Shown here: positions 48,802 to 56,770 of the stretch, piece after piece | How positions within the stretch are numbered: the first letter of the stretch is position 1 | How the letters are laid out: every line of letters begins with the position of its first letter | Origin: Actinomycetes bacterium | GTDB taxonomy: Bacteria; Actinomycetota; Acidimicrobiia; Acidimicrobiales; JAJZXF01 | DNA length: 64,000 nt | Direction: 5' to 3' | NCBI GenBank assembly: GCA_021802485.1 | Contig: JAJZXF010000003.1 | Coordinates: 1,636 to 65,635, forward strand | Position numbers and translations under genes: made by a program | The notes under the pieces: model-generated | What the model saw: the letters and a program-made list of their open reading frames with translations, nothing else | Database searches by the model: none | Told to the model about the DNA's origin: nothing

Positions 48802-49422
48802 TCAGCTTGTGGCCATACCAACTATTGGCTTGTTCAAGTGCTTTGCACCCATTGAGCCGTAGAACTTCGCGTCACCGAAGCTGAAGATTCCGCCGTCTGA
48901 TGCTACGAACCAGTAACCCTTGCCATCTGGGGTTGCAGCCATACCAACTATTGGCTTGTTCAAGTGCTTTGCACCCATTGAGCCGTAGAACTTCGCATTG
49001 CCGAAGCTGAAGATTCCGCCGTCTGAGGCTACGAACCAGTAGCCCTTGCCGTCTGGCGTAGCTGCCATGCCAACTATTGGCTTGTTCAAGTGCTTCGCAC
49101 CCATAGAGCCGTAGAACTTCGCGTCACCGAATGAGAAGATTCCGCCATCTGACGCTACGAACCAGTATCCCTTGCCATCTGGCGTAGCAGCCATGCCAAC
49201 TATTGGCTTGTTTAGGTGCTTTGCACCCATCGAGCCGCAGAACTTCGCATCACCGAATGAGAAGATTCCGCCATCTGAGGCGACGAACCAGTAACCTTTG
49301 CCATCTGGGGTAGCAGCCATACCGACAATTGGAGCGTTCAAGTGCTTTGCACCCATAGAGCCGTAGAAGTTCGCGTCACCGAAGCTGAAGATTCCGCCGT
49401 CTGACGCTACGAACCAGTAGCC
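48802..49422 (-). repeat. 5 x 126-nt near-identical coding tandem repeat
   Basis: Period measured from CCATACCAACTATTGGC at 48813 and 48939. The unit encodes [42 protein letters not shown]. Confidence 0.9.
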
Positions 49423-50673
49423 AATCCCAGAAGGCGACATTGGCGAGGTGCTATAAGCAAGGATCAGGTTCTGGTATACGGATGCGCTCTTGTATGAACC
49501 TGTAGCCACGCAGAAACTCGAGCCTACGCATGAGACTGAACTGAGATAGTTTGTCTTGGTCGAAGAGGTAGACAACGATGCTGCAGAGTCTAGAGACCAG
49601 GCGCTCCCGTTCCAGGTGAGGACCAGGTTCTGAGCGTAACCAGCGGCATCGATATATTTCCCACCTGCTACACAAAAACTCTGGCTCGTACACGAAACCG
49701 ATCTGAGAGCATCAGCACTACTCCCGGGAGCTGGAAGCGATGCTTGGGTATCCACGGACCATTTGCTCCCGTTCCAGGTGAGGACCAGGTTCTTATCAGT
49801 AGTTCCGTTGTAGAAGACCCCCGCCGCTACGCAAAAACTCGCACTCGCACACGAAACAGACTTCAGTTCATTGAACTGCGACGCCGATGTCGAAAGAGAC
49901 GAAGCGGCATCGAGTGTCCAGGTGTTCCCATTCCAGGTGAGGAGGAGGTTCTGGGACTCTTTGCCTGGACTATAATAACCTGCTGCAACACAGAAACTCG
50001 CACTCGTGCATGATATTGACGTGAACCCGCCTGGCTGGCCCGTGGGGGTAGACAGCGACGCTGCGGTGTCGAGTTTCCATGTACTTCCATTCCAGATGAG
50101 GAGAGTAGTCTGCGGATTACCACTCCCGTTGATGTAGACACCCACCGCAACACAGAAGCTCACACTCACGCACGAGATGGAGGCCAGCACGTTGTCCTGG
50201 GTTGCGGAGGTGGACAACGACGCGGCGGTGTCGAGTGTCCAAGTGCTCCCATTCCAGGCGAGGAGGAGGTTCTGAGCGTTTCCGCTCCCGTTGATGTAAT
50301 ACCCGGTCGCTACGCAGAAGCTCACACTTGAACACGATACCGACATGAGGAAACTCGCAGCTGTAGACAATGATGGCGAAGGGTCGAGAAGCCATCTAGT
50401 CCCGTTCCAAACAAGGACCATGTCCTGTGGATGACTGCTCGCATTCGAATAGAATCCTGCCGCGACGCAGAACTTCTCGCTCACACACGATACGGATTCC
50501 AGTGCATTCAACTGCGTTGCAGATACGGACAATGACGACGAGGCGTCGAGAGACCACGTAGGCGCCAGCGATGCAGCAGATGCTTGAGGCGTCGAAAGCA
50601 TCGTAAGTGATCCAACAAGCAGCGCTGTCATCACGGCACCAACAGCTCCTGCTCTACAGATACGCGAAGACAC
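48802..50673 (-). CDS. Secreted two-module repeat protein, paralog B (7 Cys-pair repeats + 5 [10 protein letters not shown] repeats)
   Basis: ORF 48802..50970. Preferred GTG at 50673, 7 nt after GGGAGGAG (rc of 50681-50688), giving the signal peptide [33 protein letters not shown]. Repeats follow as listed. Confidence 0.85.
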   Translation of the reverse strand: [623 protein letters not shown]

Positions 50674-50764
50674 GTTCAAGCTCCTCCCATTTCTCCATTT
50701 CTCAATCCCGGTATACGACGCAGAAGTGCAGCGCACACCCCATATCCAAATACCATCTCCATCC

Positions 50765-51367
50765 TCAACTATTTGGCCACCCCGGCGTCCAACCTGACCG
50801 CGGGGCATTGCTCGCTTTGCACACCGACGCGCTGGAGGCCTGATACTCATATCCAATGCGCAGGTGCTCCTTGCGAGCAATAGACCTGTCCCCCACCGTC
50901 TGGCGTTCATACCAGCAGTTCTTACCCACACCCTTAGAGGCCACGATGATCTCCTGGCAGGCATTTCCATCAGCGCAGAGGTCGACTGAGACTATTGCAA
51001 TCATCCCGGGTGTGCGCACTCCCTTTCGCTTGACGGACCCGAAATACGAGGATCTGACAACGGCACCTGTTGTCACACTAACCTTCGCGTATCCGCCAAG
51101 GTACGGATTGGTAACGTACGCGACGATCGCATGTAGGGTGACCCCTCTGTAGGACGTGGCGGTGTGGCCTCCGGCGAGTGAGTAAGCAGCATCTGCAACC
51201 GTTTTGTTGCTACCCTGGGCATAGTTGTCAGCAGTGAGCTTCGGGGTCAGATTGCTAGTCCCGAAGAACGTAATCCATGCCAGGGTGCCAAGCAGCGCGA
51301 GGATCACGGCGGCAAGGCCAAGCGAGACCTTGGAGTTCCCCAATACTCGTCTCATGGCACTTAGCAC
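50765..51367 (-). CDS. Membrane-anchored Cys-containing protein, paralog 2
   Basis: 200-aa ORF (GTG at 51367 or ATG at 51355). N-terminal TM: VSLGLAAVILALLGTLAWITFF. Conserved C-terminus: VDLCADGNACQEIIVASKGVGKNCWYERQ ... VCKASNAPRSGW. No family recognised. Confidence 0.7.
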   Translation of the reverse strand: MLSAMRRVLGNSKVSLGLAAVILALLGTLAWITFFGTSNLTPKLTADNYAQGSNKTVADAAYSLAGGHTATSYRGVTLHAIVAYVTNPYLGGYAKVSVTTGAVVRSSYFGSVKRKGVRTPGMIAIVSVDLCADGNACQEIIVASKGVGKNCWYERQTVGDRSIARKEHLRIGYEYQASSASVCKASNAPRSGWTPGWPNS

Positions 51368-55242: not shown

Positions 55243-56695
55243 CTACCACGTACGCTGGCACACCCTGATTGTGAGCAGAGATTCCTTGCAGGACAGAGTC
55301 GATCGTTGTATAGCAGCTTCCGTGACCATAACTTGGCTGCGCCAACACCGCACCCACCTTATCCGTCGTATTGTCAATGACTCCCGCCGCCTTCCCCGCA
55401 TTTCCAGGTTTAGGAACATAAACTGCGCCCCCGCTATCTCCCGGGTTTATTGTGAAGCTTGCACAGGCGAGATTTCCAACGAGAGTTCCAAAATATTGCA
55501 TGCCAACCCATACATCTGTTCCAGGCGGCCAGCCGATGGTGCCGCAGGTGATCTCATTAGTTATATAGCCACTAGCGCAAACTGACCGCCCTGCCCATTG
55601 GTCGTTGTTCGACGCCCGCCCAACTACATTATCGATAAAGCCGAAGGTGCCAGCGTCCTTTGTCTCAGCAAGGATTGTGCCCTTTGCCTTGTACGAGGAT
55701 TGGTACGGCTTGGTCAAGACAAACGCGTAGTAATCGCCGCCCGTGCCATAGCTGTATACGCGGGTGCCGATCCCGATCATAGTGCCATTAGTATAATTAA
55801 TCTGGTCCATTGGGTGCGCGCAGTGGCCAGCAGTAACGCCGTAGTATTTGTACGTGTTATAGAAAGGCCCTCGCAATGTGAAACCAGTGGTGCACTGGGC
55901 TGGTCCGTCGTTGAAGGGCTGCATAGGCCCGAGCCCCGCCTTGTAAAAAGGCACTGAGTTCCTGTTGACGCCGGGCAGCAGCCCTGGCCCCCCAGCCGGC
56001 TGGGAAGCAGTGTTGGGGCTTAGAGTTGGCTTCGGTGCGGGACGGATCCACTGCACACGCAGCGCATCCGAGGGGATGAGCTTTTGCAACTCAGCAAGGA
56101 ACCTCACGTCCTGGTGCGTAAGTCCGATACCAACGGAGTTGTCCTTTGTGTCGATATAGAAGATCATCTCGCCGGATGGCCTGTACGCTGGTGTCTTGAA
56201 GTGGCTCGCTACGTAGTCCACGATGGTCTTCTTGTATGCGTCGAGCTGCGCCATTGTGTACTTCACGTAGCTGACCTTGGTCTTCGTGGCAACGCTCAGC
56301 GCCAGGCGACCCTGAAACAGCCTCTCGGTGCTTGCATTTGGAGAACCTGCAACCATGATCCTTGTAACAGGCGACTTGCCCGAGTTGTCTATCCATGCTC
56401 CTGCAAACCGGCTAGCAAAGGTGCGCTTCGCATCGCTCACCACACTTGAGACATGAAGCGCTTCCTGAGCTGCAATGTTCGCAGCCGATCCCGGATTACC
56501 GTGGGGAGATGCGATCGGCGAGGCGAGTTGCGGCAATCGGCTCAGTGTCGAGGTTGTCGTTGCGTTTTCGCCAAGGGTTCCCTGGTTCGTCACACCAACG
56601 ACGCCGATCGCGGCTGCGCCTGCTACACCCGCTGCGCCGTAGACCTGAAGTGTGCGGTACTTCTTCCGGAGTGCCCGCTTCCATGCACGATTCAT
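55220..56695 (-). CDS. Secreted S1-family (alpha-lytic/streptogrisin-like) serine protease with prodomain
   Basis: 491-aa ORF with an N-terminal anchor/signal (VYGAAGVAGAAAIGVVGV) and a prodomain of about 250 aa. Motifs: CTTGF, TAGHC (His) and GDSGGAVY (Ser). Its 3-prime end overlaps the next gene by 23 nt. Confidence 0.85.
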   Translation of the reverse strand: MNRAWKRALRKKYRTLQVYGAAGVAGAAAIGVVGVTNQGTLGENATTTSTLSRLPQLASPIASPHGNPGSAANIAAQEALHVSSVVSDAKRTFASRFAGAWIDNSGKSPVTRIMVAGSPNASTERLFQGRLALSVATKTKVSYVKYTMAQLDAYKKTIVDYVASHFKTPAYRPSGEMIFYIDTKDNSVGIGLTHQDVRFLAELQKLIPSDALRVQWIRPAPKPTLSPNTASQPAGGPGLLPGVNRNSVPFYKAGLGPMQPFNDGPAQCTTGFTLRGPFYNTYKYYGVTAGHCAHPMDQINYTNGTMIGIGTRVYSYGTGGDYYAFVLTKPYQSSYKAKGTILAETKDAGTFGFIDNVVGRASNNDQWAGRSVCASGYITNEITCGTIGWPPGTDVWVGMQYFGTLVGNLACASFTINPGDSGGAVYVPKPGNAGKAAGVIDNTTDKVGAVLAQPSYGHGSCYTTIDSVLQGISAHNQGVPAYVVDANGTFS

Positions 56696-56742
56696 CTTGT
56701 TGTCCGACCCCTTTCATCTTCGCTCTGGCTTCGGCTGCAAGC

Positions 56743-56770
56743 AGGGTACCCCCCCCCAGAAGATTGTCAA
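56743..56770 (-). promoter_or_regulatory. Promoter-like TTGACA-16-TACCCT whose spacer contains a G9 tract
   Basis: Minus strand: TTGACA (56770-56765), ATCTTCT + GGGGGGGGG (C9 on plus, 56749-56757), then TACCCT (56748-56743). It is 48 nt upstream of the protease ATG at 56695. Confidence 0.5.

Follow-up and report, generated by a model that had tools for sequence, protein, structure and literature searches.

In a 64,000-nucleotide (nt) stretch of DNA from an uncultured Acidimicrobiales bacterium (hereafter the window, whose numbering is used for all its coordinates), six complete genes run from position 56695 down to 48802, all on the minus strand. They encode a secreted protease, a fusion of an acyl carrier protein (ACP) domain to a GNAT domain (ACP-GNAT), and two successive pairs of a membrane-tethered Cys protein (mem) and a secreted double-propeller repeat protein (rep). 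The arrangement of the locus exceeds chance, and the gene order recurs in a sister species and in a distant metagenome-assembled genome (MAG). We propose, with a probability of about 0.5, that the locus is a conserved envelope operon, probably phase-variable, in which a fixed core of pro-protease, ACP-GNAT and tethered Cys protein is combined with exchangeable exported cargo. In the focal genus and in at least one other lineage, the cargo would be one or more wall-associated double-propeller proteins.

Relatives of the ACP-GNAT sharing 46-84% identity were traced to their own contigs, and nine lineages were compared; the loci included this window, the sister species, L022, L029, L098, L087, L024/L025, L026 and L086. 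The protease gene lies immediately upstream of the ACP-GNAT gene in all nine lineages, usually with overlapping reading frames. Downstream of ACP-GNAT, mem is present in six of the nine, and in five relatives it overlaps the GNAT gene or is at most 64 nt away from it, while rep follows mem in three lineages, one of them outside the genus. The sister species has the same order as the window (identities of 62% for the protease, 68% for ACP-GNAT, 42% for mem and 56% for rep), and a MAG that is 99.3% identical is alike over the upstream half of the locus. The distant MAG (L087) has the protease, ACP-GNAT, mem and a rep made of two N-type blades plus C-type repeats, with amino acid (aa) identities to the focal proteins of 41% for the protease and 56% for ACP-GNAT. 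Behind the protease and ACP-GNAT genes, L022 carries two mem genes and L029 a lipoprotein-type mem; L098 has a split protease gene, ACP-GNAT and mem on a contig that ends just past mem. The pair is followed by a gene for a fatty acyl-AMP ligase (FAAL)-type enzyme in L024 and L025, and by genes for other small exported proteins in L026 and L086. Since the protease family is clear in only 3 of 401 genomes of the order (with weak matches in 5 more) and the GNAT subfamily is present in 41 of the 401, the pairing is highly non-random. The invariant unit is the protease plus ACP-GNAT, usually with mem, and the repeat protein is not the conserved core. The initial annotation had seen in the locus a dedicated system for producing, maturing or anchoring a surface protein, and had pointed to the phylogenetic distribution of the four families. 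A conserved cassette behind a poly-G promoter stands from that proposal, with protease and ACP-GNAT linked throughout and mem in six lineages of nine, but its centring on the repeat protein does not.

The ACP-GNAT lacks an export signal; its first ~85 residues constitute the carrier domain and the remainder a RimJ/RimL-like GNAT. Residues D37, L38 and S42 of the D-x-x-x-D-S-L carrier motif are invariant in 27 homologues, including those of Frankia and Pseudofrankia, as is the WRWRY-G-x-x-P motif of the GNAT part. Matches to the carrier domain are weak (AsbD/ACP, and weak ACP matches in the PDB), although PF00550 is precomputed on several homologues and the Joint Genome Institute (JGI) labels homologues 'RimJ/RimL family N-acetyltransferase/acyl carrier protein'. 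The Acetyltransf_3 model is likewise a weak match to the focal protein (20.4 bits, cutoff 25.4) and passes the same cutoff on a paralogue on contig C53 (32.2 bits), and the SpeG and RimL structures match at E = 5e-4. ACP-GNAT is quite probably a carrier-dependent N-acyltransferase.

A parallel for such an activity is the MbtK/MbtL/MbtM (FadD33) system of Mycobacterium tuberculosis mycobactin, in which an acyl-AMP ligase loads a carrier and a GNAT-superfamily enzyme transfers the acyl group to an amine. In that system MbtL serves as the ACP through which the lysine of mycobactin is fatty-acylated (PMC5302061). Unlike that system, the focal ACP and GNAT form one polypeptide, the locus has no siderophore cluster and its partners are secreted peptidases and surface proteins, and the dedicated ligase is missing from the focal genome. 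We also take the focal GNAT to be RimJ/RimL-like (Acetyltransf_3) and not of the MbtK type. An acyl-CoA ligase encoded at 61141-62916 of the window was considered as the missing loader and rejected; it is of the ordinary medium/long-chain type, lies among beta-oxidation genes and is 29% identical to the FAAL partners found in relatives.

In a survey of 63 GNAT-bearing loci, 62 of them from relatives and metagenome contigs and fetched around GNAT matches, a fixed query set was sought within the fetched flanks. An FAAL/MbtM-like ligase is encoded in 15 of the 63 loci, often overlapping the GNAT gene, and it adjoins ACP-GNAT in L024, L027, L028, L033 and L037. For the ligase partners of GNAT relatives the top-scoring labels are PRK07768, 'long-chain-fatty acid--ACP ligase MbtM' and FAAL; among ligases that adjoin ACP-GNAT relatives, MbtM is the second-best label. 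The same survey recovered a Peptidase_A4 (G1) gene in 7 loci, the S1 protease in 6, N-type rep in 5, C-type rep in 4 and mem in 3. In Pseudofrankia and Frankia (L027:7426-11017 and L028:8001-11242), ACP-GNAT, an MbtM/FAAL-like ligase and a SnoaL-like protein form a conserved set, joined by a P450 in one of the two, that has the look of an uncharacterised small acylation cluster.

In view of the Frankia context, ACP-GNAT may have a small-molecule role. In one alternative explanation the focal locus is a loose neighbourhood: ACP-GNAT would belong to the metabolism of lipids or small molecules, where it would N-acylate a siderophore, an amino lipid or the like in the MbtK/L/M manner, and protease, mem and rep would be ordinary exoprotein genes that share an accessory island and a promoter. 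The protease is absent from the Frankia/Pseudofrankia sets, many loci of the GNAT subfamily lack every secreted partner that was sought, and the GC content of the focal locus is lower than that of its flanks (54-55% versus ~60%), as in accessory islands. We nevertheless regard this explanation as improbable: the protease and ACP-GNAT genes are adjacent in every lineage compared, with overlapping frames, despite the great rarity of the protease family; the GNAT subfamily has repeatedly been paired with three unrelated families of secreted proteins; and the block as a whole lies behind a conserved poly-G promoter.

The pairing with secreted proteins extends to the rest of the focal genome. All five of its GNAT-subfamily loci adjoin a gene for a rare secreted protein, namely the S1 protease in two cases (one a remnant), the sole Peptidase_A4 gene of the genome, and both members of the C68_482 family, which are secreted proteins of no named family encoded on contigs C68 and C79. 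Because three unrelated secreted-protein families are paired with the one GNAT subfamily, the acceptor of the acyl group would have a link to the envelope or to exported proteins. The ACP-GNAT paralogue on C68 overlaps a rep gene, and the same arrangement is present in the sister species. A second, degenerate cassette is found on contig C140 (83516-85073; L085), where a 1.4-kb deletion has fused ~78 N-terminal codons of the protease to ACP-GNAT from residue 70; next come a mem gene of 85% identity and hisD, and the upstream tract is G5 only, with no -35 hexamer. The order of a GNAT-only gene, mem and hisD also occurs in a related MAG (L041). A third cassette, on C53 (44503-53599; L082), consists of a GNAT gene, the Peptidase_A4 gene, a gene for a 378-aa lipoprotein and two rep-family genes. 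Its GNAT has apparently lost the carrier domain, a SPASM/radical-SAM gene lies upstream, and the triple of GNAT, A4 peptidase and lipoprotein appears again in another family of the order (L032).

What might the acceptor be? There are precedents for GNAT-fold enzymes that move a carrier-bound acyl group onto a ribosomally made product, at a Lys side chain or the N-terminus, before its export, as with HlyC-type enzymes, GdvG of goadvionin and the selidamide GNATs (PMC8784127). [quoted passage not shown] One possibility, which we hold to be tentative at best, is that the acceptor of the predicted acyl transfer is a co-encoded exported protein. A stronger version of this idea, and an unlikely one, is that ACP-GNAT is a self-contained lipidation enzyme, a bacterial counterpart of N-myristoyltransferase or HlyC, that fatty-acylates envelope proteins bound for export (pro-protease, tethered Cys protein or propeller protein) ahead of their passage through Sec, in a module switched by the poly-G promoter. 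If that were true, protein lipidation by ACP-GNAT would amount to a means of surface anchoring in the Acidimicrobiales that uses neither Lgt nor sortase.

The candidate promoter upstream of the protease gene has a G run between a -35 and a -10-like hexamer. Its sequence is TTGACA-ATCTTCT-G9-TACCCT in this window, TTGACG-ACTTCCT-G10-C-TACTCT in the sister species, TTGACA-ACCCCTT-G9-TATCCT in L087, TTGACA-AAGTC-G15-TAGCGT in L022 and TTGACG-AGCCCTT-G6-TACTCT in L098, and L097 has G9 in the same architecture before an orthologous protease gene. The consensus is TTGAC(A/G)-N5-7-poly-G-TAnnnT, with runs of G6, G9, G10 and G15 at the same position; no such element was found upstream of the protease gene in L029, L024, L026 or L030. 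Proteins encoded at these loci share no more than 38-84% identity, yet the element has stayed at its position and its G run has varied in length; only ten G/C runs of at least 9 exist in the genome. The difference in run length between lineages at a conserved position suggests phase variation of the operon, and we consider it somewhat more probable than not that the tract serves as a switch or rheostat. A simple scan of the locus, which is weak for Actinomycetota, returned no convincing internal promoters or terminators, and the genes are likely to form a single transcription unit read from the poly-G promoter. Since the ACP-GNAT gene overlaps the protease gene, translational coupling of the two is likely as well.

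Phase variation through a homopolymer in a promoter spacer is known from Neisseria meningitidis, with the poly-G tract of porA and the poly-C tract of opc. The focal element resembles these in placing the G run between a good -35 and a -10-like hexamer, such that lengths of 6, 9, 10 and 15 across lineages alter the spacer. It differs in that the host is an uncultured environmental actinobacterium (Actinomycetota), not a host-adapted pathogen, that the element precedes a multi-gene envelope operon, and that the length differences known here are differences between lineages. Other homopolymers were noted in the genome. One of the ten long runs is part of a TTGACG-N7-G17 element on C68 (~9250-9290; L083:250-290), which shares its promoter architecture with the focal operon and lies ~110 nt upstream of a paralogous cassette for a secreted 482-aa protein, two 269-aa transmembrane (TM) proteins, ACP-GNAT and rep. 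Some other rep-family genes have G/C runs of 8-10 at their 5' ends or just upstream of them (C99 ~27950, C149 ~10027 and C101 ~20116), and C53 has C29, C17, G13 and C23 homopolymers within ~130 bp (13552-13680), which may be an assembly artefact or an odd low-complexity element.

The protease has a signal peptide, a pro-region of ~220 aa and a catalytic domain. Its catalytic triad H291/D321/S421, in AGHC, GDY and GDSGG motifs, is invariant in five orthologues, and the order of the triad and the motifs fit family S1 (xAGHC, D, GDSGG). When a profile of the orthologues was compared with the PDB, the best matches were streptogrisin B (SGPB; E = 1.8e-4), SGPA, a glutamyl endopeptidase and a lytic endopeptidase (E from 1e-4 to 1e-2 overall). 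Matches to family models are weak, at 15 bits for Pfam Trypsin (cutoff 20.6) and 20 bits for NCBIfam Rv1815_serprot (cutoff 175). By its motifs and profile matches the protein appears to be a distant S1E-like (streptogrisin/alpha-lytic type) pro-enzyme that falls under the Pfam thresholds. It shares with that MEROPS family the chymotrypsin-fold His-Asp-Ser triad, the big N-terminal pro-region and the signal peptide, and is set apart from it by being very distant, rare and strictly tied to an ACP-GNAT gene.

The mem protein starts with an N-terminal TM helix and a further helix, continues with a central part that is hypervariable and probably disordered, and ends in a small beta domain in which four Cys are conserved; in the L029 orthologue a lipobox replaces the TM helix. 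At E <= 1e-3, only 32 clusters of this rare family turned up in a set of 1.84 billion representatives. The AlphaFold2 (AF2) model of mem1 is mediocre (predicted local distance difference test, pLDDT, 58), and a fold search with it matched no known fold, inhibitor folds included. We considered whether mem is a detached blade of the rep propeller, an idea prompted by a local C-x5-C likeness and by weak Foldseek matches to single Photorhabdus lectin blades, and rejected it on an hhalign probability of 0.3% between a 279-blade profile and the mem family. Little was gained from pattern scans of the genome and metagenome contigs for extra protease or mem loci, or from comparing the sequences of rep, mem and the C68_482 protein with the PDB.

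An alternative explanation of the core is that it combines a weapon with self-protection: the protease would strike the walls or surface proteins of competitors, ACP-GNAT would alter an envelope precursor of the producer and thereby keep it from being attacked, as Lif/Epr do for lysostaphin, and mem would be a surface inhibitor or immunity protein. The nearest solved relatives of the protease include bacteriolytic S1E enzymes, such as 5mrt ('lytic endopeptidase preproenzyme'), the protease and GNAT genes are tightly coupled, and the same GNAT subfamily is paired with A4 peptidases, a second and unrelated secreted family. Moreover, mem diverges far faster than its neighbours (paralogues share 62% aa identity versus 89% for rep, and the mem centre is saturated), which is typical of conflict proteins, and phase-variable expression would suit a costly weapon. 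On the other hand, nothing points to cleavage of peptidoglycan by the focal protease, mem is similar to no inhibitor fold, and the overall ratio of non-synonymous to synonymous substitution (dN/dS) of mem is 0.2-0.3, not above 1. A comparison of the cassette components with the anti-phage defence models of PADLOC gave no meaningful match and a link to defence systems was rejected; no toxin-system match was obtained either. We rate the weapon explanation as having little likelihood.

The presumed cargo of the focal operon, rep1, has a Sec signal peptide followed by a 7-bladed and then a 6-bladed propeller (AF2 pLDDT 82.6). Blades of the first propeller are 53 aa long with one C-x5-C pair each, the second is built from near-identical 42-aa repeats, and Foldseek matched the model to tandem propellers only, with probability 1.0. 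In rep2 there are five of the C-terminal 42-aa repeats as opposed to six in rep1. Matches of rep to Pfam models (Ribosomal_L24e, CSD_RNase_II, DUF6087 and DUF2510) were discarded as short-repeat artefacts in which no single stretch passes; the 42-aa-repeat propeller has no real Pfam model, and little was found in the literature on the repeat family. Within the window, C-type 42-aa repeats are encoded at 48802-49422, 51603-52349 and 11127-13250. In the 2.86-Mb genome, the C-type repeat module is encoded in ~62 open reading frames (ORFs) and the N-type module in 24, many of them at contig ends, and a collection of 5.8 billion proteins holds more than 7,900 with the C-type module. There the module is fused to L,D-transpeptidase (YkuD) plus PG_binding_1, SpoIID, CHAP, Peptidase_A4, pro-kumamolisin, GH43, CAP, Ig and PKD domains. 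Because it is widespread and often fused to peptidoglycan enzymes, the 42-aa-repeat propeller is probably a general surface or wall-retention module of Acidimicrobiales exoproteins.

In Bacillus anthracis, the wall-polymer modifier gene csaB is located next to genes for S-layer proteins with SLH domains. The focal locus has in common with that system a cytoplasmic transferase encoded with wall-retained proteins, and a promiscuous retention module shared by many exoproteins. It is unlike that system in that the module is a 42-aa-repeat beta-propeller whose wall binding is a proposal, and in that the putative chemistry is N-acylation as opposed to pyruvylation.

The mem and rep genes are duplicated as a unit of ~2.9 kb. 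The unit starts within the 3' end of the GNAT gene, so that each later unit has a non-coding GNAT relic and a mem leader; relics are at ~51430-51551 and 48640-48747, and the one in the junction between the first two units is 91% identical to the true GNAT end and has a TAG stop. A third unit begins at ~48570, and its mem gene is cut after ~52 codons by an IS3-type insertion sequence (IS) element. In a related MAG (L040) the order is rep-mem-rep-mem, with an intact third mem of 222 aa and a first rep orthologous to rep1. The identity of rep1 to the first rep of that MAG is 95% and of rep2 to its second 91.5%, versus 89% between rep1 and rep2; orthologues are thus closer than paralogues, and the duplication is older than the split from the related MAG. 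The centre of mem1 and mem2 cannot be aligned. The dN/dS of rep is ~0.2, and dS is 0.34 for rep and 1.09 for mem. Across five junctions from two genomes, conservation of the ~205-nt stretch of GNAT relic and leader is 91% and so exceeds that of the mem coding sequence behind it, a pattern that suggests gene conversion or a cis-acting role. The conserved junctions lie at 51368-51602 and 48575-48760 of the window and at L040:2190-2420 and 5130-5360, and contain a small GAGGC-CGA-GCCTC hairpin.

The initial annotation had described amplification of the membrane and repeat protein genes and had taken them for the dosage-sensitive or antigenic output. The duplication is real, with a third, IS-interrupted unit in addition. 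A recent event was rejected, as the array is shared with the related MAG and the paralogues have diverged, and dosage is unlikely because the duplication predates the species split and the copies have drifted apart. The array instead suggests diversification of an old duplication. This bears on the idea that the four genes are a production line for the repeat protein, in which the protease trims it, ACP-GNAT lipidates or acylates it, mem anchors it and the duplicated units are the output. The four-gene order in three lineages, the paralogous ACP-GNAT that overlaps a rep-family gene in two species, the C53 cassette with its GNAT, A4 peptidase, lipoprotein and two rep genes, and the position of mem directly before rep throughout the array all speak for it. 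However, the core occurs without rep in L022 and L029 (and in L098, where the contig ends after mem), and the protease/ACP-GNAT pair has other partners in L024, L026 and L086. Since rep genes are so numerous, some adjacency is expected and a rep next to any gene is weak evidence of a functional link; across the order they are not enriched near GNATs (5 and 4 of the 63 loci), and helper genes of this kind are missing around the genome's dozens of other rep-family genes. With an array that is old and diverged, unlike a dosage amplification, we find a production line for the repeat protein unlikely, if a little less so than the two explanations rated above.

Returning to the conserved envelope operon with exchangeable cargo, from the gene order, overlaps, conservation, domain identities, folds and inter-lineage poly-G lengths we infer co-transcription, phase switching, an acyl donor and an acceptor along the following lines. 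Transcription would begin at TTGACA-N7-poly(G)-TAnnnT, where the length of the G run would set the -35/-10 spacing, and it is proposed that slippage thereby switches or tunes the whole operon. The ACP domain would receive a phosphopantetheine arm and then an acyl group, fatty or other, which in relatives would be supplied by the co-encoded MbtM/FAAL-type ligase; the GNAT domain would hand this group on to an amine, in the way that MbtK uses acyl-MbtL. The acceptor would be envelope-bound, either a co-encoded exported protein before its export or an envelope precursor on which those proteins depend. The protease and the tethered protein would work outside the cell, and the propeller protein would be kept at the wall through its C-terminal 42-aa-repeat propeller.

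Several observations weigh against this proposal. The GNAT is cytoplasmic and all of its partners are exported, so a direct protein substrate would need to be acylated before Sec export. There is no dedicated FAAL-type ligase at the focal locus and no close one in the genome, where the best candidates are ordinary acyl-CoA ligases of 25-29% identity, and the neighbours of ACP-GNAT in Frankia (ligase, SnoaL-like protein and P450, with no protease) resemble small-molecule chemistry. With respect to the switch, the 99.3%-identical MAG has the same G9, with no difference in length, and the poly-G promoter was missed by a consensus scan, its -10 hexamer TACCCT being weak. Finally, rep is missing at the orthologous loci L022, L029, L024 and L086.

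The layout of the locus is given in Table 1. ORF coordinates bear out the same-strand run of genes described in the initial annotation, and its 23-nt overlap of protease and ACP-GNAT (55242 versus 55220), its G9 tract and its 91-nt gap and strong ribosome-binding site before the repeat protein were all recovered, the last as GGGAGGAG 7 nt before the GTG at 53612. The gap between ACP-GNAT and mem1, put at 64 nt, measures 63 nt from the GTG; the ATG is the likelier start because homologues begin with MRRIRRNSK. The domain identities assigned at the outset (S1 protease with its triad, ACP with its DSL serine, tethered Cys protein, and double-repeat protein with a signal peptide) hold too. Ordinary beta-oxidation genes and thrS flank the locus.

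Table 1. Features of the locus in window coordinates.
Feature	Position	Strand	Description
Poly-G promoter candidate	56743..56770	-	TTGACA-N7-G9-TACCCT, G run within the spacer
Protease	56695-55220	-	491 aa
ACP-GNAT	55242-54400	-	280 aa; 23-nt overlap with the protease gene
mem1	54336 (GTG) or 54324 (ATG) to 53704	-	210 or 206 aa; 63 nt (GTG start) or 75 nt (ATG start) from ACP-GNAT
rep1	53612-51603	-	669 aa; GTG start; 91-nt gap to mem1
Unit junction	51368-51602	-	Non-coding relic of the GNAT 3' end plus conserved intergenic mem2 leader
mem2	51367 (or 51355) to 50765	-	200 aa from 51367; 235 nt from rep1, GNAT relic included
rep2	50673-48802	-	623 aa; 91-nt gap to mem2
Third unit	48416..48760	-	GNAT relic, leader and first ~52 codons of mem3; IS-interrupted
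IS3-family element, orfA/orfB	46870..48415	-	Approximate boundaries, from sequence and ORFs; terminates the array

All domains of the cassette belong to known kinds, and no characterised member was found of the cassette, its poly-G promoter or the 42-aa-repeat module. No textbook view is changed yet by these points. They define a conserved, uncharacterised partnership in the Acidimicrobiales between a secreted peptidase and a carrier-fused GNAT, often with a tethered Cys protein, with another context for the GNAT in Frankia, and they offer a lead to a possible role of ACP-GNAT fusions that are annotated merely as 'phosphopantetheine-binding protein'. The 42-residue-repeat propeller is a candidate for the main wall-retention domain of the order, and the variable G runs at a conserved promoter position suggest that envelope operons of an uncultured actinobacterium from the environment may be phase-variable through homopolymers.

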